A program made the position numbers and the translations under genes. Shown here piece by piece: positions 2,959 through 30,481 of a stretch of 64,000 nt of DNA. The DNA lies in the NCBI GenBank assembly GCA_028821475.1, contig JAPPGB010000171.1, positions 12,727 to 76,726 on the forward strand. Direction: 5' to 3'. A model generated the notes under the pieces. The model ran no database searches and was not told the DNA's origin. It saw nothing but the letters and a program-made list of their open reading frames with translations. Position 1 is the stretch's first letter; each line of letters begins with the position of its first letter. This DNA comes from Spirochaetaceae bacterium. Lineage in GTDB: Bacteria > Spirochaetota > Spirochaetia > SZUA-6 > Bin103.

Positions 2959-3843
2959 TCAAGTTGCTGTCCAGTGCACGCGCTGCATCCAGAAGTAGAA
3001 CAACGGCGCGCACAGCATCAAGGAATCTATCGAGTCCAGCAATCCGCCCCGTCCCGGAATGAGTTCGCCGGAGTCCTTGACCTGCGCGGCGCGCTTCAAG
3101 GCCGACTCCACCAGGTCGCCGACCGCGGCACAGATGCCCATGGCCGCCCCTCCCAGTGCTGCCTCAAAGGTACCGAACTGCGGGGCGCCGGGGAATACGC
3201 GCTGCGCGACGATCAACGCCGCCACCGACGCGGTGATGCCGGTGATGTAACCGATGGCGGTCTTGGTGGGACTCGCCGGCAGGCCGAGCGCCGTGCGTCC
3301 GCGGGCCAGCTTGCCTGCCACGTAGGCGATGGTGTCGTTGCTGAACACCGCCACGAAGAAGGTAAGGAGCAGCCACTGAGGCGTGCCGAAACCGGCGAGG
3401 CGCACGATGTAGCCGATGAACAGTCCGGGATAGAGGCTGGCGAACAGTGTCGCGCCGGCCTGACCGAGCCGATCGTCGTGCCGGCCGCGCACCGAGGTTC
3501 CGGGCAGCAGGGTGACCACGAGGACGAGCGCGACCACCGCCGCGGCCGCGCCGCCGAATGCGTGCCCGGATACCAGGCCCCAGTTCTCCAGGTAAGCCAC
3601 GGCCGGAAACAGCACCGAACAACCTGCCGCCAGATGCCAGCGGCCGGCAACGTCGCGCCGGGTAAACAGCGCCGCGACCTCGCGCGATCCGAGCACCGCC
3701 GCGACGGCGGCGCACAGGCTGAACAGGAGGTGGCGATAGGCAGGGACGGCAAAGATCAGGACGAAGAACGCGGGCACCGCCGCCACGAACAGCAAAAGGC
3801 GGGTCGAGAATCGATCGGCCGACAACACGGTCTGCGGCTTCAC
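2959..3843 (-). CDS. cdsA: phosphatidate cytidylyltransferase CdsA
   Basis: Multi-TM protein with a C-terminal CTP-transferase signature (SPTKTAIGYITGI, DLVESALKR), in the canonical position upstream of rseP. Confidence 0.82.
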   Translation of the reverse strand: MKPQTVLSADRFSTRLLLFVAAVPAFFVLIFAVPAYRHLLFSLCAAVAAVLGSREVAALFTRRDVAGRWHLAAGCSVLFPAVAYLENWGLVSGHAFGGAAAAVVALVLVVTLLPGTSVRGRHDDRLGQAGATLFASLYPGLFIGYIVRLAGFGTPQWLLLTFFVAVFSNDTIAYVAGKLARGRTALGLPASPTKTAIGYITGITASVAALIVAQRVFPGAPQFGTFEAALGGAAMGICAAVGDLVESALKRAAQVKDSGELIPGRGGLLDSIDSLMLCAPLFYFWMQRVHWTAT

Positions 3844-3885
3844 GATCGACGCAGGATCTCTGTACTCGGTGCCACCGCTAAACCG

Positions 3886-4437
3886 TCAGATCTCCATGAT
3901 CTCCTTTTCTTTCGCGGCGAGGAGGTCGTTGATCTCGGCGATACGCTCGTTGGTGGCGGTCTGGACCTGTTCCGACTCGCGCTTTGCTTCGTCTTCGCTG
4001 AGACCTTCCTTCTGGTCCTGCCTGATACCTTCATTGAGGTCGCGACGGATGTTGCGCACCGCAACCCGCGCCTGCTCGGCGGCGTTGCGCGCCTGCTTTA
4101 CAATCTCCTTGCGCCGCTCCTCGGTAAGGGGCGGAATCGCGATGCGGATTACCTTGCCGTCGTTGCTCGGATTGAGCGACAGGTCCGACTTCTGGATTGC
4201 CCGCTCGATTTCGCTCAGGGTGGATCGGTCCCACGGCTGGATAACGACCAGGCGCGCCTCGGGAATGGAGATTGTGGCGGTCTGGTTCAGCGGCATCTGC
4301 TGGCCATACGCCGCAACGCGTATCTTGTCGAACATGGCGGCGCTGGCGCGCCCGGTACGGATGGTCTTGAACTCGCTCGACAGCGCGTCAAGCGTTTTCT
4401 GCATGCGCTGTCGTGCCTCGCCGGCGAGATCGGCCAC
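3886..4437 (-). CDS. frr: ribosome recycling factor
   Basis: 183 aa with a full-length Frr signature (MFDKIRVAAYGQQMPLNQ...VIRIAIPPLTEERRKE...). Confidence 0.95.
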   Translation of the reverse strand: MADLAGEARQRMQKTLDALSSEFKTIRTGRASAAMFDKIRVAAYGQQMPLNQTATISIPEARLVVIQPWDRSTLSEIERAIQKSDLSLNPSNDGKVIRIAIPPLTEERRKEIVKQARNAAEQARVAVRNIRRDLNEGIRQDQKEGLSEDEAKRESEQVQTATNERIAEINDLLAAKEKEIMEI

Positions 4438-4463
4438 GGTTTCCTCTCCTCAGGTGGTGCGCC

Positions 4464-5315
4464 TCAGCCTGCCGCCGGGGCTTCCTCACCTACCTTGTAA
4501 TAGACGTAGTCCGCGATCTGCACCTCGGTGCCAAGCTCTTTTCCGAGCCCGGCCACGAGCTGCTTTACGCTCAGCTTCTGATCCTTTACGAATGCCTGCT
4601 CAAGCAGGCAGATCTCCTGCAGATGCTTGCGGAGCTTGCCTTTGACAATGCCTTCGACCACCTTGGCGGGCTTGTCGAGCAACTCCGCCTGCTTGCGGAA
4701 GATCGCCTCCTGCTCGGCCAGGTAATCGCCGGTCACGTTGTCCGGCGCGAGGAACGGCGGCGCATAGGCGGCTACGTGCAACGCCAGGTCGAAGGCGGTC
4801 TCGTTGATGCGCTCGTGGCCGGCGAAGGCGGCGTCTGACGCATGCAGCTTGACCAGCACGCCAATGGTGCCTTCGCCATGCAGGTAGTGGGCCACGGTGT
4901 CGCCGTCGCCGACGGCGACGCAGCGGAACCGGCGCAAGGCGATGTTCTCCTTGATGCGGCCGATGGCAGCGGTAATCAGTTGTTGCATCCTGTCGGTGGG
5001 AGCCTGCGGACTCTCGGCGGCCACTTCGGAGACGAGCTCCTCGCCAAGCGTCATGAACTGATCATTGCGGGCCACGAAGTCGGTTTCGCTCGACAGCTCC
5101 AGAATCGCCGCCGTGCCGTTGACGGTCGCGAACACGCGGCCCTCGTTGGTTGCGCGCCCGCTGCGCTTGGCGGCCGCCGAAAGGCCCATCTCCTTGAGCC
5201 GGCGTTCCGCGGCGGCCAGGTCGCCGCCACTCTCCACCAACGCGCGCTTGCAGTCCATCATGCCGGCTCCGGTCTGCTCCCGGAGCCGTTTTACATCTTG
5301 TGCGGAAATTGCCAA
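4464..5315 (-). CDS. tsf: elongation factor Ts
   Basis: N-terminal UBA-like EF-Ts motif (AISAQDVKRLREQTGAGMMDCKRALVESGGDLAAA), 283 aa. Confidence 0.95.
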   Translation of the reverse strand: MAISAQDVKRLREQTGAGMMDCKRALVESGGDLAAAERRLKEMGLSAAAKRSGRATNEGRVFATVNGTAAILELSSETDFVARNDQFMTLGEELVSEVAAESPQAPTDRMQQLITAAIGRIKENIALRRFRCVAVGDGDTVAHYLHGEGTIGVLVKLHASDAAFAGHERINETAFDLALHVAAYAPPFLAPDNVTGDYLAEQEAIFRKQAELLDKPAKVVEGIVKGKLRKHLQEICLLEQAFVKDQKLSVKQLVAGLGKELGTEVQIADYVYYKVGEEAPAAG

Positions 5316-5366
5316 TGCTAACTCCTGATTGTAGGGGCGCGCTCCGGCCGTGCCGGAACGCCGCCG

Positions 5367-6353
5367 TCAGCGGTCGTACAGCGTGTCTTCGTCGATCCCG
5401 GCTTTGTCGGTGACCGTTTCCTGTTCCGGCTGCGCTTGCTCGGGCTCATCTTGCGGCGTGTAGTTGGAATAGTCCTGGTCGGTGAATCCCTGCTGTCCCT
5501 GATCCTCGGCCAAGGCGGCGGCGCCGGCCATTTCACCGAGCGACACCGTCTCGAGCTCCGGCGCCGGTTCGGCGTCGTACTCCTCGCCGAATCGATCCTT
5601 GTCGATGATCTGGTCGTAGTCGTACTCGTCGGGGCCCTCGTCCTGCAACGTCTCGATAACCTCCAGGCCCACTTCGTTCTCCGCCTCGACGACGGCGTTG
5701 GCAACGATCTGGGTGAACAGGTTGATGGCCCGAATGGCGTCGTCGTTGCCCGGGATCGGCAGGTCGATGACGTCCGGGTTGCAGTTCGTATCGACAATGG
5801 CAACCACCGGAATCTTCATCTTGTTGGCCTCGGCGATCGCGATTGCCTCCTTGCGGGTGTCGACCACGAACATGACCCCGGGAAGGTCCTTCATTTCCTT
5901 GATGCCGCCCAGGTTGCGCTCAAGCCGCGCCTGCTCCTTCTGCATGCGCGAAATCTCTTTCTTGGTCATGTTCGAGAAGGTGCCGTCGACCTCCATCTTC
6001 TCGATCTTCTTGAGCTTGAGCAGTGAGCGCTTCATGGTCGAGAAGTTGGTGAGCATGCCGCCGAGCCAGCGATTGTTGACGTAGAACATGTTGCAGCGCC
6101 GGGCTTCCCGTTCGATCGACTGCTGCGCCTGTTTCTTGGTGCCGACGAACAGCACGTGCTTGCCGGCCAGAACACTCTGGCGGACGGTCTCGTACGCTTC
6201 CTTGATTGCGACGATGGTCTTCTGCAGGTCGATGATGTGGATGCCATTGCGCTCGGCGAATATGTACCGCTGCATACGCGGATCCCAGCGCTTGGTCTGG
6301 TGTCCGAAGTGCACTCCGGACTCCAGCAGGTTTTTCATGGTAACGACGGCCAA
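5367..6353 (-). CDS. rpsB: 30S ribosomal protein S2 with ~85-aa acidic C-terminal extension
   Basis: [27 protein letters not shown]... is the canonical S2 N-terminus. At 328 aa it is longer than the ~240-aa typical S2, ending in a D/E/Q-rich tail. Confidence 0.95.
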
Positions 6354-6380
6354 CTAGCTCCCCCTGTCATTGCAACCTGC

Positions 6381-6980
6381 TTATTGCGGGCTGCGAAACG
6401 GATAACCGCTTTGCGCCAACATACGATATATCGTTTCCAGCGGCAAGCCTACGACGTTGCTGTAGGAGCCGTCCAGGTGAGTGGCCAGGAGCGCGGCACG
6501 GCCCTGGATGCGGTACCCGCCGGCCGCGCCGCGCCACTCGCCGCTGTCCAGGTACCAGTCCATTTGCGCGGCGCTGAGCGGGGCGAAGGTGACGGCGGTA
6601 CGGGCCAGCGCCACCTCCAGCACGCGCTCCGGGGTAGCCAATGCAACGCCGGTCAGCACATGGTGGACGGTGCCGGCAAGCCGCCTCAGCATGGCGCGGG
6701 CACAGTCGCGGTCGGCGGGCTTGCCGACCAGGTCGGCGCCGATCAGGACGGCGGTGTCGGCCGCGATCAGCCAGCCCGGTTCCGGCACGCGGGCAAGCAC
6801 GGCGCGCGCCTTGCGGCGGGCGAGTTCGACCACCGCCCGCTCCGGGGGAACCTGCGCCGCCACCGTCTCGTCGGCGCCCGACGGCACCACGCGCACCACA
6901 AAGCCCGCCGCCCGCAGCAGGGCAAGGCGCTGCGGCGAGGCGGACGCCAGGGTAATGGCCGGCGGCGCGCAGGCGGTCAC
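6381..6980 (-). CDS. maf: Maf-like nucleoside triphosphate pyrophosphatase
   Basis: LASASPQRLALLRAAG...IGADLVGKP...GYRIQG...SNVVGLPLE motifs typical of Maf/YhdE. Confidence 0.85.
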   Translation of the reverse strand: MTACAPPAITLASASPQRLALLRAAGFVVRVVPSGADETVAAQVPPERAVVELARRKARAVLARVPEPGWLIAADTAVLIGADLVGKPADRDCARAMLRRLAGTVHHVLTGVALATPERVLEVALARTAVTFAPLSAAQMDWYLDSGEWRGAAGGYRIQGRAALLATHLDGSYSNVVGLPLETIYRMLAQSGYPFRSPQ

Positions 6981-6981
6981 G

Positions 6982-7945
6982 TCAGCGGTGCACCGCGTAG
7001 CGCTGCGCGGGCGCGGCGGCGCCCAGGGCAGCCGCTTCGCCGTCGCCGAGAGGAGTGCTCGCCGCGGCTGCCACGTTGTCCTGCAACTGCGCGAGGCTGC
7101 TCGCTCCGGGGATCACGGTGGCCACGGCCGGCGCCGCCAATGCAAACCGCAATGCGCTCTGCGCCGGCGTTCGCCCGGCCGCCGCGCTGACCTCCCCGAG
7201 CACCTGCTGGATTAGCGCTACCCGTTCCCGGTCATGGCCCAGTTCGGCACGCGCCGGCTTGCCGTACTCACCGCGTGGCGGCGAGCCGGACTCACCACGT
7301 GAGCCGTACCCACCGCGGAGCGGCGCGTCGGCAAGCAGCCCCTTGGCTACCGGTCCGCGTGCGATCACCGAGATGCCGCGGTCGCGCAGCAGCGGCAGCG
7401 CCTGCTCCTCGGGGCGGCGGTCCAACACGCTGTACTGCATCATCACGCTGGCGATCGACGAGCGCGCCGCGTATTCGCGGATCACGTTGGGACGGATCGA
7501 GGAGATGCCCCAGGCGCGGATCGTGCCGGCCTCGCGCAGCGCTTCGAAGGTGGCGATGACGTCGTCGATAGGGTCTTCAATGGTGCCGCCGTGCAACTGG
7601 TACAAGTCGATGTAGTCGGTGCTCAGGCGGCGCAGACTCGCCTCGACCGCGCGACGGATGTGGGCCGGTGACGGGTCCCAGTCCCAGCCGTCGCCGCCGG
7701 CGCGCCAGCGGTTGCCCACCTTGGTGGCGACGATCACCTCGCCGCGACGCCGCCCGAGCGCGCGCGAGCCGTTCCTCATTGGCGCCCCGCTCGTACAGGT
7801 CGGCGGTATCGAAGAAATTGACGCCCAGGTCAAGCGCACGATGGACGATCGCGTCGGCGGCATCGCCCGCCTTCGCCAGCGACATGCAGCCAAGGCCGAT
7901 CTCGCTGACCGTGAGGCCGCTCGACCCCAACCGGTTCAGTTTCAT
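6982..7945 (-). pseudogene. aldo/keto reductase, split into two frames by an indel in a (GC)n run near 7756-7770
   Basis: The N-terminus (7577..7945 frame) reads MKLNRLGSSGLTVSEIGLGCMSL...FFDTADLYERGANEERL. The remainder (6982..7893 frame) reads ALGRRRGEVIVATKVG...IDLYQLHG... and continues to the stop. The junction is at gagcgcgcgcgagcc. Confidence 0.7.
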
Positions 7946-8028
7946 GCCCGCAGTCTATCATCGAGGGGAGCCGGTCGTTTCCGGTCCGTTCTCCTCCGGA
8001 TTGACAGCTTCCCGGCAGATGCGCACGA

Positions 8029-8979
8029 TTGCCGCCGATGGAGCGCACCGCGGTAGAGCCCCTCAACGTGCGGAGTACGCCGATCGGCGTGCGCATCCTC
8101 CGTTCCTACCAGTTGTACCTGCTCCTGCTGCCCACCGTCGCGCTGGTGTTCGTCTTCCAGTACGTGCCGATGTACGGCGTCACCATCGCATTCAAGAACT
8201 TCAAGCCGCACCTCGGCATCATCGGCAGCGACTGGGTCGGGCTGCATCACTTCATCCGCTTCTTCGAGTCGCCCAGCTTCTGGCGCCTGATCCGCAACAC
8301 CATTTTCTTGAGCGGCTACGAGTTGCTGCTCGGCTTTCCAATTCCGATCGTCCTGGCGCTGATGATGAACATGGTAACCGGCGCCCGCTTCAAGCGCACG
8401 GTGCAGATGGTCACCTACGCGCCGCACTTCATCTCCACGGTGGTGATCGTGGGCATGCTGGGTGTGTTCCTGTCCAAGAACTTCGGCCTGACCAACCACC
8501 TGATCGACGTGCTCGGGGGAGAGCGGGTGTTCTTCCTCGGCAAGGAGCAATGGTTCCGGTCGCTGTACGTGTTCTCGGGGGTGTGGCAGAACGCCGGCTG
8601 GGGCACCATCATCTACCTGGCCGCGCTCAGCGCCATCGACCCCGAGTTGCACGAGGCGGCGATCGTGGACGGCGCCACCCTGTGGCAGCGCGTGTGGAAC
8701 ATCGACATTCCCGGCATCCTGCCCACCATCGTCATTCTGCTCATTCTCAACGTCGGACAGATCATGGGGGTCGGCTTCGAGAAGGCGTTCCTGATGCAGA
8801 ACGCGCTCAACCTGCAGGTGTCGGAGATCATTTCCACCTTCGTCTACAAGGTGGGGCTGCTCGATGCCCGGTTCAGCTTCTCGGCGGCGGTGGGCCTGTT
8901 CAACGCGGTGATCAACTTCGTGCTGCTGGTATCGGTGAACCGGTTCGCAAAGGTGCTCGGGCAGTCGGGGCTGTGGTAG
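8029..8979 (+). CDS. ABC transporter permease, LplB-like (polysaccharide/oligosaccharide CUT1-type)
   Basis: 6-TM permease with the LplB-type N-terminus (YQLYLLLLPTVALVFVFQYVPMYGVTIAFKNF) and an EAA-loop region. Confidence 0.8.
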   Translation: MPPMERTAVEPLNVRSTPIGVRILRSYQLYLLLLPTVALVFVFQYVPMYGVTIAFKNFKPHLGIIGSDWVGLHHFIRFFESPSFWRLIRNTIFLSGYELLLGFPIPIVLALMMNMVTGARFKRTVQMVTYAPHFISTVVIVGMLGVFLSKNFGLTNHLIDVLGGERVFFLGKEQWFRSLYVFSGVWQNAGWGTIIYLAALSAIDPELHEAAIVDGATLWQRVWNIDIPGILPTIVILLILNVGQIMGVGFEKAFLMQNALNLQVSEIISTFVYKVGLLDARFSFSAAVGLFNAVINFVLLVSVNRFAKVLGQSGLW

Positions 8980-18197: not shown

Positions 18198-18277
18198 CGC
18201 CTCCGGACATAATGACTGACACGGTTGAGTTGTACCACCACCGATGCCCCGCAGCATCGTCGAGCGAGTAGCGCCAC

Positions 18278-19063
18278 ATGAAAACTGTTGCCGGTGACGC
18301 CTCCCCCATAGTTGGCGTTGTCTCCCTGTCGGAGGCTGTTGGCAAAGTCACGGCACGTGCCGGTAAGAGCCTACCCGCTGGCGACAAGCTCGCCGAGTTC
18401 GTACGATGGTCGCAGGACCATCCAGCAAACGAGTGGGTGTTTCGAGGCCAGCGCAACAAGGAATGGCGGCTGCAACCGTCGGTCGGTAGGGACGGTTCGT
18501 ACAGCCTGGACTGGGAGCGCCTGCTGCTGGAGCAGTTTCGGAGACTGGCGGAGCCATACGTAAACTCAGCAGGAATGACCGACTGGGACTGGCTCGCGCT
18601 GGCGCAGCATCACGGCCTGCCCACGCGGCTTCTGGATTGGACGTCAAACTCGCTAGTAGCATGCTTCTTCGCGTGTCAGACGGCTCATTCGCAAGCGTGC
18701 GAGATGGATGGTCAGGTAATCGCGATTGAGACACGGTCGGTCGGCTTCTACGAGTCGAACGATCAGCAAGATATCGATCCACTCGAGATTGAAACCGCCA
18801 AGATGATCAGGCCGCGCGCACTCGCCGGGAGAATCGTCAACCAAAGAGGGTTGTTCAGCATCCACGCGCACCCCGATCGGTCCTGGGGAGTGCAGACGAA
18901 GGAGATCGACCTCGCACACTTCGATATCCCTAAGGAATTGAAGAAGTTACTGTTGCGCGGGCTCCACAACCTCGGGATTGATGACGCTCATGTGATGCCA
19001 GACCTGGACGGGCTGGCACGGACGTTGAAGTGGCAGTACGAGACTGGTACCCTACCTGGGTGA
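18278..19063 (+). CDS. FRG-domain protein (Pfam FRG-like; function unknown)
   Basis: Eponymous motifs are present (WVFRGQRNKEWRLQPSVGR and QHHGLPTRLLDWTSNSLVACFFA). 261 aa. The G+C is visibly lower than in flanking genes. Confidence 0.8.
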   Translation: MKTVAGDASPIVGVVSLSEAVGKVTARAGKSLPAGDKLAEFVRWSQDHPANEWVFRGQRNKEWRLQPSVGRDGSYSLDWERLLLEQFRRLAEPYVNSAGMTDWDWLALAQHHGLPTRLLDWTSNSLVACFFACQTAHSQACEMDGQVIAIETRSVGFYESNDQQDIDPLEIETAKMIRPRALAGRIVNQRGLFSIHAHPDRSWGVQTKEIDLAHFDIPKELKKLLLRGLHNLGIDDAHVMPDLDGLARTLKWQYETGTLPG

Positions 19064-19067
19064 AGCC

Positions 19068-19433
19068 ATGAAGATCGAGTCTGCACCCGTCTGGTTCGCG
19101 GAACTCCCACGTAAGCTGTATGACGCCGCTCGGGACTATGCGCTGGATGAGAAGCCCGAATGGGACGAACTCGGGCCTTTGGCAGATATTATCAAGTTCG
19201 AGGGAGTTACGGCATACTCGGAAAGCGCCGTAGTGGATAACGGCGAGTGTGTCGTTGCCGGGCGCGTGGCGGTCACGTTGATCTACGATCCCAATAAGGA
19301 TCCAGATCCCAAGCCCGACGCGAAGTGTGGAGCAGTCCGCGACAGCCTTCCCGCGAGCATCTTCTTCGAGGTCGCCGACCAGGAAGTGCGGATCAAACGG
19401 ATCCAGGTGGACCTGTCGCCGTTGCTGCGGTAG
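19068..19433 (+). CDS. hypothetical 121-aa protein, co-oriented 4 nt downstream of FRG gene
   Basis: ORF MKIESAPVWFAELPRKLYDAARDYALDEKPEWDELG... with no recognisable domain. It has the same lower-G+C character as the FRG gene, and its 3' end overlaps the convergent monooxygenase gene by ~41 nt. Confidence 0.45.
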   Translation: MKIESAPVWFAELPRKLYDAARDYALDEKPEWDELGPLADIIKFEGVTAYSESAVVDNGECVVAGRVAVTLIYDPNKDPDPKPDAKCGAVRDSLPASIFFEVADQEVRIKRIQVDLSPLLR

Positions 19434-20943
19434 CAGGAGTCGCCGATGTCGACGGTGGATGCGGGTTCAGCGGGAGTTCATTGACCAGGGTATCCAGTGC
19501 CGCGGGATCGTTGGCCGTGCCGTGGAGATATCTGTCAGGGCGGATGGCTACGGCACTTGCTCCGAGTTCAGCGAGGTACTCGGTGGCTCCGTCCAGTTCG
19601 CCGAGGGTCCAGACGTGGATCCCCTCCTCTACGGCGCTCGCTCCTCCTTTCCACTGCGCCAGCAGCGAGCTGTCGGCGAGGAGGGCCGGGCCGTATCCTA
19701 CGAATTCGTCCGACAGGTTGCCGGCGGGTGTGCGTAGCTGCCGGGAGATGTAGCCGGCCGCATCGGAACTGGCGTGCCACAGGCCTGGGCCGAGGCGGGG
19801 TGAGATGGTGGTCATCCTGTACGAACCGTCCGGTTGCCGGAAGGCTGACTTGAGGGCCGCCTCGCTGTCAGACGCATTGACCAGCCGGCCGAGGGCGACG
19901 GCGCCCTCGATGAAGGCCCGGACGTGCGGATGGCGTTCGCTCTGGTAGCTGTCGAGCAGGGCGTCGTCGTGCCTTTGTCGGATGCAGAGGGCGAGCTTCC
20001 AGGCCAGGTTCGCGGCGTCGCGGATTCCGGCACACATGCCCTGGCCCATGAACGGCGGGCTCTGGTGAGCGGCGTCGCCGGCGATCAGCAGCCGGCCCCG
20101 GCGCCAGCGCGACGAAATGACCGAGTGGAACGTATACACCGCCGCCCGCTCGATTACGGCGTCGGAGGGTGTCAGCCAGCGCGCCAGGCGGCGCCAGACG
20201 TGCTCCGGCGCGAGCGCTTGTGCGTCTGGGAGGTCGGCGATGAAAATCTCCCAGCGGCGCCGCCGGCCCGGACCCCGGACGTAGGTCGCGGGAGCCCCGG
20301 GATGGCAGTACTGGATCGTGAAATCGCCCAGGTCCGGCCGCTCGCCGCTCAGCAACAGGTCGACCACGAGCCAGCGCTCGTGGAACCCCAGGTCTTCGGC
20401 ACGGTCGGTGATCCGCTCGCGGACCAGCGACCGCGCGCCGTCGCAACCCACCACGTAACTCGCCGCCAGCGTATGCCGCCGCTCGTCTTCGCGGTAGGTG
20501 ACCGCGGCGAGTCGCTCACCCGGATCGATCGACATCACCTCCGTACCCAGGAGCACGTCGACGTTCGGCATGCTGCGCAGGTGGTCACGCAGAATCGCCT
20601 CCAGGTCGGGCTGGTGGAAGCGGTAGCTGGGGTGCCAGCCCTGGGGCCCGACCTGCTGCGGACGGGGCCAGTCGAGTATCAGCCTGCCGTCGGGATCGAC
20701 GAACCGCATGCCGGCATTGACCCGGGACACCGCGGCGACCCGATCCGCGACGCCGATGGTCTGGAAGATGCGCATCACTTCGCCGTCGAAGTGGACGGCA
20801 CGAGGCAGGCGGTAGATCTCCGCCTCTCGTTCCAGGACCACGACCCGTAACCCGCACAGCCCCAGCAGGTTGGCGAGCACCGCTCCGGTGGGCCCGAAGC
20901 CGACGACGGCGGCGTCGTAGGGCCCCCGACGCTCGCGTGGCAC
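19393..20943 (-). CDS. FAD-dependent aromatic monooxygenase (MhpA/3-(3-hydroxyphenyl)propionate hydroxylase-like)
   Basis: Rossmann motif YDAAVVGFGPTGAVLANLL, VVGCDGARSLVRERI, and the GD motif LIAGDAAHQSPPFMGQGMCAGIRDAANLAWKL. GTG start ~20943. The last ~25 aa (PHPPSTSATPATAATATGPPGSV) are low-complexity. Confidence 0.85.
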   Translation of the reverse strand: MPRERRGPYDAAVVGFGPTGAVLANLLGLCGLRVVVLEREAEIYRLPRAVHFDGEVMRIFQTIGVADRVAAVSRVNAGMRFVDPDGRLILDWPRPQQVGPQGWHPSYRFHQPDLEAILRDHLRSMPNVDVLLGTEVMSIDPGERLAAVTYREDERRHTLAASYVVGCDGARSLVRERITDRAEDLGFHERWLVVDLLLSGERPDLGDFTIQYCHPGAPATYVRGPGRRRRWEIFIADLPDAQALAPEHVWRRLARWLTPSDAVIERAAVYTFHSVISSRWRRGRLLIAGDAAHQSPPFMGQGMCAGIRDAANLAWKLALCIRQRHDDALLDSYQSERHPHVRAFIEGAVALGRLVNASDSEAALKSAFRQPDGSYRMTTISPRLGPGLWHASSDAAGYISRQLRTPAGNLSDEFVGYGPALLADSSLLAQWKGGASAVEEGIHVWTLGELDGATEYLAELGASAVAIRPDRYLHGTANDPAALDTLVNELPLNPHPPSTSATPATAATATGPPGSV

Positions 20944-20951
20944 GGGCGTGT

Positions 20952-21929
20952 TCAGACCAGCCGGTTTCCGCTGAGCGCGCCCCACAGCCACGGGCAGTCG
21001 GTGGGCGGCGGTGCCTGCATGCCTCCTCTGGCTATACCGAGCCTCAGCTCGCGGTACGCCCGGCGCTCCTCCTCCGGCAGATGGGCGCGGTCGTGGCCCC
21101 AGAAGCTCGGTCCGTGCTCCATCACCTGGACCTGCCACCTGTCCGGCTCGATGATCCGCCCGCCCCACCCGGTCTCGACGAAGAAGCCGGATGGCGTGTG
21201 CGTGTAGAATGACGTCATCCAGTCGTTGGTGTGGCGGCCGAGCGTGTACGCTACGGTGCCCTCGGACTGCTGGGCGAGGTCGTAGCCCTGACCGACGTCG
21301 TCGAGATTCATGTACTCCACCATGAAGTGGTGGAAGCCGCTCTGCCCGGTGCCCAGTACCGCGAAGCTGTGGTGGCGGCCGTTCACGTGAAAGAAGTAGA
21401 GCGGAATCGGCTCCAGCCCGTAGTCACTGAGCCGGAAACCGAGCGTATCGCGATAGAACGGCAGTAATGTGTCGATGTCGTCGGTGTGCAGGACCGCGTG
21501 GCCCATGCCGAGGGGTCCGGTCTTGAAGCCCGAGATGTGCCGGCCCGGTATGAAGGGATCTTCGGTCAGCATCGGGCCATGGAAGAACTCGAGGCGATTG
21601 CCGGCAGGGTCGTGCGCGATTGCCAGGCCGGTCACGAAGCGTCGGTCGGCAAGAGCACGGGTGCCCTGACTGACCTCTGTGCCGGCATCGGAGAGACGTG
21701 CGCACAGTCGGTCCAGAGATGCGCCGTCCGCGACTTCCCAGCCCATGCACGCCAGGAGGTCGCCGGGTTCCGCGGTCACGATCAGGCGCTGCTTCCGGTC
21801 GTCCATGCGAAAGGCCGCCTGGCCGGCGCCGCGGTCGACCGCCTGCATTCCCAACTGGCGGCTCGCATAGTCCGACCAGTCCGACAGCCGGTCGGTGCGG
21901 ACCCCGAGGTAGCCAAGTGCGGTGATCAT
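20952..21929 (-). CDS. type I extradiol ring-cleavage dioxygenase (BphC/catechol-2,3-dioxygenase-like, VOC superfamily)
   Basis: MITALGYLGVRTDRL..., GMGHAVLHT, HHFMVEY and LGRHTNDWMTSFY match the BphC family. The track ORF (703 aa) is over-extended upstream, through the antisense of the next gene. Confidence 0.85.
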   Translation of the reverse strand: MITALGYLGVRTDRLSDWSDYASRQLGMQAVDRGAGQAAFRMDDRKQRLIVTAEPGDLLACMGWEVADGASLDRLCARLSDAGTEVSQGTRALADRRFVTGLAIAHDPAGNRLEFFHGPMLTEDPFIPGRHISGFKTGPLGMGHAVLHTDDIDTLLPFYRDTLGFRLSDYGLEPIPLYFFHVNGRHHSFAVLGTGQSGFHHFMVEYMNLDDVGQGYDLAQQSEGTVAYTLGRHTNDWMTSFYTHTPSGFFVETGWGGRIIEPDRWQVQVMEHGPSFWGHDRAHLPEEERRAYRELRLGIARGGMQAPPPTDCPWLWGALSGNRLV

Positions 21930-22118
21930 GAGCCCGAGCCTGCCGGTTTGCCGGGGCGCGTGTCCACCTGTCTCGTTGGCGTTCGTGCCTGGTGCCGAAA
22001 GTGAGTGACACGCGTTCCCGGAGGTGCCGGCGCGGCCGTATGCTATGTCCGCGGCAGCACGGCTGCCGCTCGCTCGCGGTACGGATCTCCCGCATCCAAA
22101 CCAGCCACGGAGAAGCAC

Positions 22119-29319: not shown

Positions 29320-29736
29320 TCATAACGTGCCTCGCGGGGCGATCCACTCTGCGGGCTGGCCAGTGACCTCCGCGATACGGTCGAAGTCTTCGTCGTAGTG
29401 CCACAGTGTTGCACCCGCCGTCTCGGCACAGGCGGCGATTATCAGATCCGCTATCTTCACGCTGCGGTGGTGCAGACCGCCTCGTCCGGCTAGCAGGTGT
29501 TGGACTTCGAGTGCCCGCTCGAAGTGTTCCGCTGTACACGGGAGTTGATGGAGCGCAAGCAATTCCGCGCTGAGCTTCTCGTAGTCGTCGGCGCTGCGAG
29601 CCGAATAGAGCACTTCAAGCCTGATTTGAGCACAGGTAGCGAGGGTGTCCGTCATCAACTGCCGTTCCCACGCGACGGAGACCGTGGGTTTCGTCGCACG
29701 GTGCCACGCGCTGGTGTCGGCCAGGTACAGCCTCAA
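29320..29736 (-). CDS. vapC: type II toxin VapC (PIN-domain ribonuclease)
   Basis: PIN acidic residues (LYLADTSAW..., ...HYDEDFDRI). Overlaps the upstream antitoxin gene by 4 nt. Confidence 0.8.
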   Translation of the reverse strand: MRLYLADTSAWHRATKPTVSVAWERQLMTDTLATCAQIRLEVLYSARSADDYEKLSAELLALHQLPCTAEHFERALEVQHLLAGRGGLHHRSVKIADLIIAACAETAGATLWHYDEDFDRIAEVTGQPAEWIAPRGTL

Positions 29737-29945
29737 CGGTGCCAGCTTCGGCTCGCTTCGAACATCTGCTCGCCACGGTCGATCCCTTCGCCTGATCGGA
29801 TGCGAGCAGCTAGCCGTCGTCGGAGAGCCGCACGGATCACCTCTTGCAGCGCCAACTCAACCGTGTCCTTGACTCCTGATGTACCGAGTACCTGCTGAGC
29901 CCGAGCAAGCTGTTGTTCGTCGACTTCCAGCGATGTGCGTCTCAT
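29733..29945 (-). CDS. vapB: antitoxin VapB (Rv0623-like/PSK transcription-factor family)
   Basis: MRRTSLEVDEQQLARAQQVLGTSGVKDTVELALQEVI is typical of this antitoxin family. ATGA overlap with vapC. Confidence 0.7.
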   Translation of the reverse strand: MRRTSLEVDEQQLARAQQVLGTSGVKDTVELALQEVIRAALRRRLAARIRSGEGIDRGEQMFEASRSWHR

Positions 29946-30070
29946 GGCACTACGGTAGCACAAGAGCCCAGGCAATTCAAGCATTCAAACGTCGGTTCTA
30001 TACATGCTTCAGCAAGGTCATTTTTCGTGCGCATCTGCTTCCGACTACACCACATCGGTCACTCGAAGGG

Positions 30071-30481
30071 TCACGGAGCAAGCCAGTTTTCGAGAGTGAG
30101 GCCGGTGATGCGGTTGAAGTGGCGGGTGTTGGCGGTAACCAGGGTCAGGGAACGGGTCAGCGAGATTGCAGCTATGCGCAGGTCGGGCTCAGCAAGTGGC
30201 ATGCCGTCCGCCTCAAGCTCCGCCCGGAGGTGACCGTAGCGCTCTGCTGCCGCGACGTCGAACGGTACTACCGTGACTAGATGGTGGAGCAAGGCGCGAA
30301 CGCGGTCCGCGAGAGCATCGGAACCGCGCTTGGCGGCGCCGTAGACCATTTCGCCGTAGGTGATGGAGGTGGTGAACTGCTGCGACGGCGGCGTAACGGC
30401 GAGCCGGCGAACGAGATGTAGCGGTGGATGCCGGCGCAGAACGGCCGACAAGATGTCGGTATCGAAGCAATACACCGTCAA
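30071..30481 (-). CDS. vapC: type II toxin VapC (PIN domain), second copy
   Basis: MTVYCFDTDILSAVLRR...VTANTRHFNRI. Overlaps the upstream phd by 4 nt. Confidence 0.8.
   Translation of the reverse strand: MTVYCFDTDILSAVLRRHPPLHLVRRLAVTPPSQQFTTSITYGEMVYGAAKRGSDALADRVRALLHHLVTVVPFDVAAAERYGHLRAELEADGMPLAEPDLRIAAISLTRSLTLVTANTRHFNRITGLTLENWLAP

Follow-up and report, generated by a model that had tools for sequence, protein, structure and literature searches.

An FRG-domain gene and its co-evolving downstream partner: a candidate two-gene conflict module in a Spirochaetaceae bacterium

What is the function, and what has been the history, of two short genes of low G+C content that stand side by side between metabolic genes in a spirochaete genome? 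The window, i.e., the whole stretch of 64,000 nucleotides analysed here, contains on its plus strand a gene for an FRG-domain protein (18278-19063, 261 aa, ATG start) and, directly after it, a gene for a small protein, here called the partner (19068-19433, 121 aa, ATG start). The 4-nt spacer AGCC (19064-19067, plus strand) lies between the stop codon of the first and the start codon of the second, so that the junction reads TGA-AGCC-ATG. This short gap points to an operon, in which translational coupling is probable. According to Pfam, the flanking genes are a GNAT acetyltransferase gene, divergent from the pair, and an FAD_binding_3 monooxygenase gene, convergent with it. Since the GNAT orthologues have lengths of 153-158 aa, the GNAT gene should start near 18210 on the minus strand, and the divergent intergenic stretch that remains (18211-18277) is the presumed promoter of the pair. 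Neither a sigma-70-like consensus promoter nor an intrinsic terminator was found at the locus of the pair. A preliminary description had drawn the same picture, with two co-oriented ORFs 4 nt apart, FRG motifs in the first of them and a divergent GNAT gene and a monooxygenase gene as flanks, and all of these elements are present.

It had also judged the pair, by eye, to be poorer in G+C than its surroundings, and the numbers bear this out. The G+C contents of the FRG and partner genes are 0.591 and 0.592 and their GC3 values 0.705 and 0.719, respectively, while the means for the genes of the window are 0.666 ± 0.036 for G+C and 0.864 ± 0.060 for GC3 (n = 51, crude gene calls). This corresponds to z values of about -2.1 for the G+C of both genes, and of about -2.6 (FRG) and -2.4 (partner) for GC3; in both measures they are the two lowest of the 51 genes. 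Next in order of GC3 come two PIN-domain (VapC-like) genes of the window, at 29320-30481, so that the low-GC3 company of the pair consists of PIN toxin genes only, an observation that speaks for a conflict module.

The FRG protein matches the Pfam family FRG (PF08867) over residues 52-138 with 99.9 bits, where the cutoff is 25 (E = 1.6e-28). The FRGQ and QHHGLPTRLLDWT motifs are present in its translation, the FRG and HHG-PTRLLDW motifs are visible in it, and it keeps every invariant column of an alignment of 58 FRG sequences. The PADLOC model PDLC04938 of the candidate family PDC-S15 covers nearly its whole length (residues 36-255, E = 4e-72, 241 bits) and 13 further PDC-S15 models match as well; PADLOC would thus annotate the gene as PDC-S15. 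A weak match to MntR, obtained with the C-terminal part of the FRG profile (E about 0.01), and hits to the Pfam families DUF4031/DUF2811 were dismissed as chance. FRG proteins are numerous, with over 6400 homologue clusters, and their genes also occur on more than 200 viral contigs.

When the FRG protein is modelled, it shows the fold of the ADP-ribosyltransferase (ART) toxins, with a split beta-sheet, and the structural neighbours of the model are ART-fold toxins that include TreX, Tre1, RES, MbcT, DarT and ParT. Two earlier papers from the Aravind laboratory reportedly introduced Frg as an ART. The predicted fold agrees with an independent published assignment, in which the same laboratory counts Frg as a member of the ADP-ribosyltransferase superfamily and predicts it to be an antiviral effector/NADase (PMC9503650). 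With this prediction in print and with PDC-S15 covering the FRG gene, the preliminary statement that no described system matches the pair was too strong. When FRG residues are assigned to ART strands by the order of secondary structure, without superposition, the invariant Arg R56 falls on the first strand, the invariant residues T116, R117 and D120 around the second, and the invariant R185 and Q189 ahead of strand 191-195. No Glu is invariant at the place expected for an ART triad, and the signature residues of FRG are unlike the classical triads, R-S-E and H-Y-E. A sequence search of the PDB with the FRG and partner family profiles gave nothing significant. The domain had been called biochemically uncharacterised, and rightly so: no biochemical or phage-challenge study of any FRG protein was found in the searchable literature, nor any experimental report of phage protection by PDC-S15, which is mentioned there in annotation outputs only.

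Full-length homologues of the small ORF form 20 clusters, with identities of 75-92%, with indels of whole codons only and dN/dS values of 0.12-0.22; from this follows that it is coding, as had been supposed. That it has no recognisable domain turns out to be wrong. The window partner itself matches no Pfam or PADLOC HMM, PF18166 and Aga_Nuclease included, at E ≤ 1. A profile built from the partners of the window's lineage recovers the wider partner family, and, when iterated, matches PF18166-annotated proteins at 1e-27 to 1e-31. Among the 52 members of the partner family, 37 match PF18166 (pP_pnuc_2, "Predicted pPIWI-associating nuclease") and 30 match the PADLOC model Aga_Nuclease. By its sequence, and through these intermediates, the partner is a divergent member of PF18166/Aga_Nuclease. 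Its model has an N-terminal helix on a four-stranded antiparallel sheet, a fold with a weak resemblance to NTF2 and cystatin and tentatively classed with them.

If the predicted-nuclease label of Pfam and PADLOC is taken literally, the partner would be the effector and not the regulator. The roles would then be reversed, with the partner as a small nuclease and the FRG protein either sensing infection or making an NAD+-derived signal or modification that activates the nuclease. The matches of the 37 and 30 family members speak for this, as do two acidic residues of the partner, D92 and D115 (window numbering), which few of its polar residues match in conservation, and the mention of Frg as one of the ART-superfamily domains by which ADP-ribose-derived signals are made (PMC9503650). 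The label of the family is, however, itself a prediction, and no experiment on any PF18166 protein was found in the searchable literature. No column of the family alignment is invariant, and D115 is its sole polar residue conserved at 90% or more, so that conservation lends a catalytic site little support. The folds that the model weakly resembles are binding or scaffold folds, not a known nuclease fold. In the decay events described below, moreover, it is always the FRG gene that is disabled and the partner survives intact in two lineages, which is unexpected for the dangerous component. We consider this reversal of roles unlikely.

To see how tightly the two genes are associated, consider the 80 FRG-seeded genome loci in which pairing was counted by six-frame translation (the window's own clade is absent among the 600 matches listed in the FRG search of genome contigs). 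The partner is found directly downstream of the FRG gene and co-oriented with it in 30 of the 80, and the partner family occurs in no other placement in these loci. In these 30 distant loci the partner mostly begins between -3 and +12 nt from the FRG stop codon. A neighbour-joining tree joins the 30 partner-linked FRG proteins and that of the window in a single clade, and none of the 80 loci that falls outside this clade has a partner. The pairwise distances of FRG and partner are correlated with a Mantel r of 0.72, a value reached by none of 5000 permutations, and the partner evolves faster, with a mean pairwise distance of 0.74 versus 0.59 for FRG. FRG and partner are thus inherited, transferred and evolving as one unit, and the preliminary proposal of a conserved two-gene cassette stands. 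Apparent N-terminal extensions or fusions of the partner at four loci (L035, L051, L052, L066) are artefacts of stop-to-stop read-through; the real partner genes begin there 170-550 nt past FRG. A metagenome scan with the close partner alignment (A1) gave three loci. Three loci of Methylobacterium/Methylorubrum (L014-L016) have an apparently intact FRG gene and no partner, which argues against strict dependence of the toxin-antitoxin kind.

How the pair arrived in the lineage of the window is a separate matter. At synonymous sites the pair has diverged as much as the genes that flank it, and many related genomes carry it at that very position; it is therefore not a recent insertion and, judged from sequence, is old and vertically inherited there. 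Of the horizontal acquisition suggested earlier, the foreign G+C remains, and the pair is deemed a mobile unit, while the recent insertion falls away. Where the pair is intact, both genes are under purifying selection, with dN/dS of about 0.2. The locus has nevertheless been inactivated at least five independent times, with the FRG gene disrupted every time: at L007 and L094-96 the FRG core is deleted and the partner intact, while at L089, L090 and L177 the FRG gene is deleted and the partner degraded. No locus in the lineage combines a broken partner with an FRG gene that is still intact. Gene size alone could produce this asymmetry by chance, because FRG makes up 68% of the combined coding length and the probability that four first hits all fall in FRG is about 0.21; against such a null expectation it is not significant. 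Truncated FRG calls of 197 aa at L001-L004 and L006 reflect a late start chosen by the gene caller, since the reading frame continues uninterrupted across the FRG motif, and at L005, where the call is missing, the frame is open and the stop codon lost; among L001-L007 only L007 is a true FRG pseudogene. The pair is dispensable and has repeatedly been lost.

The pair occurs in three settings: it stands by itself between housekeeping genes, is embedded in a Type III restriction operon, or closes a QueC/deoxyribosyltransferase operon. The 24 stand-alone pairs have 133 neighbours, which are mostly housekeeping genes, and the neighbours of the window pair are metabolic genes; this prevalence of ordinary metabolic neighbours counts against a conflict module. 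At one locus (L008) the pair has the gene of a Type III Res subunit on one side and that of a methylase on the other; at two others (L051, L091) it is found beside Type ISP enzymes, in one case (L091) with nSTAND3 and AAA_13 genes close by. Restriction-modification, SspH or mads matches occur among the neighbours at few loci, and Argonaute/PIWI is absent from the 25 families that the scan of neighbours lists. The defence-island linkage of the partner-bearing sub-clade thus appears weak. The defence association named for FRG in the preliminary description is borne out in so far as FRG is catalogued, as PDC-S15, among candidate defence genes. In one sub-branch (M. loti, Bosea, Roseibium, Methylobacterium and a viral contig) the pair ends the QueC operon, the eight genes of which include those for an Ogg-like glycosylase, a QueC-like enzyme, two PfkB/nucleoside-deoxyribosyltransferase-like enzymes, each with a small partner protein, and the terminal FRG-partner pair. 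One copy of the pair lies on a predicted viral contig. In 17 of 17 alphaproteobacterial loci the G+C of the pair is below that of its flanks, by 10.4 points on average, and among the matches listed the distribution is sporadic, with the cassette at differing sites in differing genomes.

These contexts bear on whether the pair belongs to conflict at all. The genes could instead serve NAD+/ADP-ribose or nucleoside metabolism, or an RNA 2'-phosphate processing of the Tpt1/KptA kind, with the partner as accessory subunit. Such a role fits poorly with the sporadic distribution, the varying sites and the consistently foreign G+C among the matches listed, with repeated loss within a single lineage, and with copies on viral contigs and in restriction operons; furthermore, no NCBIfam housekeeping model matches FRG or partner. 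We regard it as very improbable.

The reading that we put forward, with about even confidence, is that the two genes make up a conflict module, self-contained and horizontally mobile, for defence or of a toxin-antitoxin-like kind, in which an FRG effector is controlled by the partner. The partner would be made from the same transcript as FRG and would bind and control it, either by holding it inactive, as an immunity protein or antitoxin does, or by acting as the sensor of the trigger. The ART-fold catalytic domain of FRG would consume NAD+ or ADP-ribosylate a target, and FRG would in this way be a growth-arresting effector. In favour of this reading stand the behaviour of the genes as one unit, the ART-toxin fold of the FRG model, the PADLOC candidates PDC-S15 and Aga_Nuclease for the two families, the restriction enzymes beside the pair at L008, L051 and L091, the copy on a viral contig and the many viral FRG genes, the low G+C, and the repeated losses that all strike FRG; the partner's lack of the DNA-binding domain usual in type II antitoxins stands against it. 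A more specific version, possible though doubtful, is that the pair is a portable immune output module, composed of a sensor or regulator and an ART-fold NAD+-consuming effector, which bacteria would use by itself, within operons for restriction-modification, and at the end of the so far undescribed eight-gene operon as its terminal effector.

Known ART toxins with immunity protein or antitoxin, i.e., TreX-TriX, Tre1-Tri1, RES-Xre, MbcT-MbcA, DarT-DarG and ParT-ParS, are likewise encoded by two adjacent genes, and the likeness is that of an ART-fold protein (here predicted) with a smaller neighbour protein. FRG and partner have no detectable sequence homology to such pairs, and the partner model, tentatively NTF2-like, is unlike Xre, macrodomain or DraG-type antitoxins. 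As in type II toxin-antitoxin systems, the two genes of the window pair are small, neighbouring and oriented alike, with little DNA (4 nt) between them.

Could the pair then be a selfish addiction cassette without any part in phage defence, with FRG as ART-type toxin and the partner as antitoxin, that persists by post-segregational killing and horizontal transfer? The solitary two-gene unit scattered among the housekeeping genes of many genomes, the tight coupling, the low G+C everywhere, the fast evolution of the partner and the hit to FRG in every loss would all be expected, and the model neighbours RES, MbcT, DarT and ParT from toxin-antitoxin systems and the PIN toxins as the other low-GC3 genes of the window point the same way. 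However, type II antitoxins typically have a DNA-binding domain, and none (HTH, RHH or AbrB) is found in the partner by Pfam matches; this, together with the toxin-first order, is atypical of type II. The intact FRG genes without partner at L014-L016 do not fit. The positions in restriction operons and at the end of the larger QueC operon suggest a working output module and not a free-standing addiction element, and long vertical chromosomal persistence under purifying selection requires a benefit to the host. An addiction cassette is hence a poor prospect, if not so poor as a purely metabolic role.

Three further known systems stand close to the pair. PDC-S15 is defined as a single-gene candidate, whereas one FRG clade here has an obligate, co-evolving downstream partner, the family of which PADLOC models separately as Aga_Nuclease, without a link to PDC-S15. 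PF18166/Aga_Nuclease, with which the partner family overlaps, is a predicted nuclease tied to prokaryotic Argonaute/PIWI genes; unlike in that association, FRG adjoins the partner in all 30+ FRG-seeded loci examined. Finally, the sub-branch pairs end operons like the QueC-like "cluster 4" operons with PfkB/nucleoside 2-deoxyribosyltransferase (PMC13329287), a paper that makes no mention of FRG or PF18166, and defence systems that contain QueC, type IV CBASS with Cap9 among them, offer a further comparison for these pairs. The window pair stands alone, without the upstream genes of the QueC operon.

The cassette thus belongs to the catalogued candidate phage-defence family PDC-S15, and the obligate partner is a new detail relative to the single-gene definition of PADLOC. 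For the source genome the finding is an ordinary one: an accessory cassette of long standing, from a candidate family already catalogued, that is intact between metabolic genes. For the family it means more, as FRG proteins are widespread and flagged by defence-prediction software, with a function so far only predicted. For one large FRG clade the unit to clone is two genes, not one, and FRG tested alone could mislead, by toxicity or by giving no phenotype. The partner is linked to a domain family seen beside prokaryotic Argonautes, and a larger QueC-type operon is indicated that has the same pair as its end module. If the pair is indeed a portable output module, the partner-bearing clade of PDC-S15 would really be a two-gene system, and PF18166 would be an effector-control domain common to Argonaute systems, and not a nuclease.

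The two open reading frames of the preliminary description lie where it placed them, one of 261 aa (18278-19063, + strand) and, four bases (AGCC) downstream, a partner of 121 aa (19068-19433, + strand). The former carries the FRGQ and QHHGLPTRLLDWT motifs and matches the Pfam FRG model (PF08867) at 99.9 bits, and Pfam matches agree with a position between a divergent GNAT acetyltransferase upstream and a convergent FAD-dependent monooxygenase downstream. The longest monooxygenase frame (stop codon 19393-19395) shares 41 nt (19393-19433) with the 3' end of the partner; the same overlap is called in the related locus L007, while other relatives have about 120 nt between these genes. The smaller frame is protein-coding, as had been supposed: among its 20 full-length homologue clusters (75-92% identity) every length difference is a whole number of codons, and dN/dS against orthologous copies from related genomes is 0.12-0.22 for the partner, 0.18-0.22 for FRG, 0.20-0.26 for the flanking GNAT gene and 0.11-0.27 for the flanking HpcH aldolase gene. 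Both frames are genuine genes kept under selection.

FRG and partner are an evolutionary unit. When six-frame translations of 80 FRG-seeded reference-genome loci, sampled from among the matches listed, are searched with an iterated partner profile, the partner is found in 30, always co-oriented and immediately 3' of FRG, with start codons mostly from -3 to +12 nt relative to the FRG stop. In a neighbour-joining tree of FRG proteins these 30 loci and the window form one clade, whose only partner-less members are three near-identical Methylobacterium/Methylorubrum copies, and from all of the 80 loci that fall outside this clade the partner is absent. Among 80 viral FRG loci it occurs only in the viral contig L097, whose FRG is closest to that of the window. 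The pairwise distances of FRG and partner correlate (Mantel r = 0.72, 0 of 5000 permutations), the partner diverging faster. The pair is thus conserved as a two-gene cassette, and the possibility that it might not recur in other genomes is clearly contradicted.

The FRG protein matches 14 HMMs of PDC-S15, a PADLOC single-gene phage defence candidate, the best over nearly its whole length (E = 4e-72), which makes it a member of an already catalogued candidate defence family; it also matches phrog_4962, a phage family without an assigned function. An AlphaFold2 model from 58 homologues (pLDDT 81.7), confident except in the disordered N-terminal 30 residues, predicts an ADP-ribosyltransferase (ART) fold. 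Family-invariant residues include R56-G57, G70-R71, E80, Q110-H111, G113, P115-T116-R117, D120-W121, N124, R185 and Q189. When mapped by the order of secondary-structure elements, R56 falls within the first strand, and Q189 just precedes the strand that bears the catalytic Glu in classical ARTs. A Gln at that position is known from NAD+-glycohydrolase toxins such as TNT. The FRG domain had been called biochemically uncharacterised, and our literature search turned up no study of an FRG protein by biochemistry, structure determination or phage challenge.

The window partner has no match when scanned directly against four libraries. An exhaustive profile search of 1.8 billion representative proteins gives 49 relatives, almost all of 115-140 aa, and Pfam PF18166 (pP_pnuc_2, "Predicted pPIWI-associating nuclease") is matched by 37 and PADLOC Aga_Nuclease by 30 of the 52 members of the partner-family alignment. 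These matches make the partner a divergent member of a family already defined, computationally only, which corrects the description "without recognisable domain". Since the alignment has no invariant column and a single polar residue conserved at 90% or more, conservation lends little support to the label "nuclease". The family name would fit a reversal of roles, in which the partner would act as nuclease effector and FRG as signal or regulatory enzyme, and with conservation so sparse we regard this as rather unlikely.

FRG and partner have a G+C of 0.591 and 0.592 and a GC3 of 0.705 and 0.719, the two lowest values among 51 crudely called window genes (means 0.666 and 0.864 ± 0.060), which bears out the lower G+C first noted by eye. 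Next in GC3 (0.72 and 0.75) come two PIN-domain (VapC-type toxin) genes at 29320-30481 (29320-29736 and 30071-30481, both - strand; E values 1.6e-14 and 1.3e-13 between them). Because these toxin genes, an internal control, rank directly after the pair, low GC3 in the window genome marks mobile toxin-type accessory genes. At 17 of 17 stand-alone alphaproteobacterial loci the pair is poorer in G+C than the flanking sequence, the mean difference being 10.4 points. The low G+C thus belongs to the cassette wherever it occurs and does not mark a late arrival in the window genome. Horizontal acquisition, as originally proposed, thus stands as a mobility signature but not as a recent event, since relatives have the pair at the same site and its synonymous divergence from them, 0.34-0.67, is about equal to that of the flanks, 0.26-0.62.

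At this identical site, related genomes have the order HpcH aldolase, GNAT, FRG, partner, FAD monooxygenase. Both genes are intact in the window, L001-L004, L006 and L088. The partner is intact also where FRG has an open frame without its stop codon (L005), an internal deletion of the domain core (L007), or a different core deletion and a premature stop (L094-L096), and it is frameshifted where FRG is wholly deleted (L089) or lacks its first 184 codons (L090). L177 retains a faint trace of FRG and the first ~27 partner codons, and L180 has cleanly lost a 3.9-kb block (L180:4390-4459 versus window 18199-22067) with both genes, the FAD monooxygenase and a BphC-type extradiol dioxygenase. From these states follows that the cassette is ancestral to the window's lineage, dispensable and repeatedly lost, with intact copies under purifying selection; the window itself holds an unremarkable copy, old and intact.

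On the far side of HpcH, L180 carries three transposase genes, all different. The site of the decayed pair in L090 is occupied by a gene of the PDDEXK_9 nuclease family and one for a 124-aa protein without Pfam match (L090:5460-6261), which may mean that another accessory cassette has replaced the pair. L002 has a second, partial partner copy (3' half, L002:11824-12081) beside a second FAD monooxygenase copy, and an 85-aa protein (P0029) on the L088 contig is likewise a partial copy; because the L002 copies bracket an inserted sugar-ABC-transporter/short-chain dehydrogenase block, the junction was duplicated during insertion or rearrangement. The "Spirochaetaceae bacterium" label of several NCBI MAG records may deserve a check, because the nearest named HpcH homologues outside the close lineage are from Chloroflexota (Dehalococcoidia, SAR202), alongside a genome of 67% G+C and related contigs reaching 5-7.8 Mb.

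At least five inactivations in the lineage all disable FRG, and no lineage locus surveyed has an intact FRG with a broken partner. This asymmetry fits an FRG that is harmful without its partner, but is suggestive only, because FRG is the larger mutational target, so that four independent first hits all in FRG have p ~0.21 by chance, and because an intact FRG without partner occurs in L014-L016. The asymmetry and the GC3 rank beside VapC-type genes would also suit a purely selfish toxin-antitoxin element, which, given those partner-less copies and the place of the pair in restriction and QueC operons elsewhere, is unlikely.

In other genomes the cassette occurs alone, in or beside restriction systems, or at the end of an eight-gene operon. 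The window pair is of the stand-alone type, and most of 133 genes that flank 24 pairs of this type are ordinary metabolic ones, including glycine-cleavage proteins, aminotransferases, transporters and ribonucleotide reductase. In L008, which at 50% identity is the nearest relative not belonging to the window's lineage, the pair has a Type III Res subunit on one side and a DNA methylase on the other; in L051 and L091 it is beside Type ISP enzymes, with Mrr-nSTAND3 and AAA_13 genes near the latter pair, and SspH or mads matches are near a few others. The suggested defence-island link is weak for this clade, with a few restriction contexts beside mostly metabolic stand-alone neighbours. A non-conflict metabolic role appears, in view of the restriction contexts, quite improbable. 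In L060 an RHS-repeat protein of polymorphic-toxin type (L060:2378-5992) lies ~1.9 kb upstream of the pair, a single case with no link established.

The conserved eight-gene operon encodes, in this order, an Ogg-like (Ogg-HhH) glycosylase, a ~120-aa protein, a PfkB/nucleoside 2-deoxyribosyltransferase (NDT) fusion, a QueC-like protein, paralogous ~115-aa and ~390-aa NDT-like proteins, FRG and the PF18166 partner. It is present in Mesorhizobium, Bosea, Roseibium, Methylobacterium and a predicted viral contig (L091:4460-10004, L092:4498-10045, L093:4585-10114, L097:426-6014; also L022, L012, L025, L027), often with a divergent HTH_3 regulator 5' of it, and in M. loti within a defence island. A 2026 QueC survey noted the QueC-PfkB/NDT link, assigned no function and left FRG unmentioned (PMC13329287). 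The operon has the appearance of a multi-gene conflict system not yet described, with the FRG pair as end module. Three species, Methylobacterium gregans, M. hispanicum and Methylorubrum rhodesianum, have a near-identical copy (L014-L016, about 3300-8900) that ends with an apparently intact FRG, no partner, and then a putative tRNA-like sequence, an arrangement that points to a recent transfer by an integrative element, at whose edge the partner was lost.

We hold, with about even confidence, that the cassette is a self-contained conflict module of an ART-fold FRG effector and a small cognate protein. Direct support comes from the predicted fold, the unit character, the mobility signature, the dispensability and the immune-context links of both families. 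FRG would consume NAD+ or ADP-ribosylate a target, and the partner, co-translated with it, would interact with it and restrain or trigger it; toxicity and anti-phage activity we infer. The fold class of FRG was already predicted in print and the partner's Pfam family exists, so the preliminary statement that no described system matches must yield for the single genes (PDC-S15, PF18166). It may stand for the way in which FRG and an obligate partner co-evolve as two genes in this clade, and for the use of the pair as a module by itself, within restriction operons and at the QueC operon end, of which we found no description in an incomplete literature that may hold an earlier one. The finding is of use chiefly in fixing the proper unit for experiments, which is two genes.
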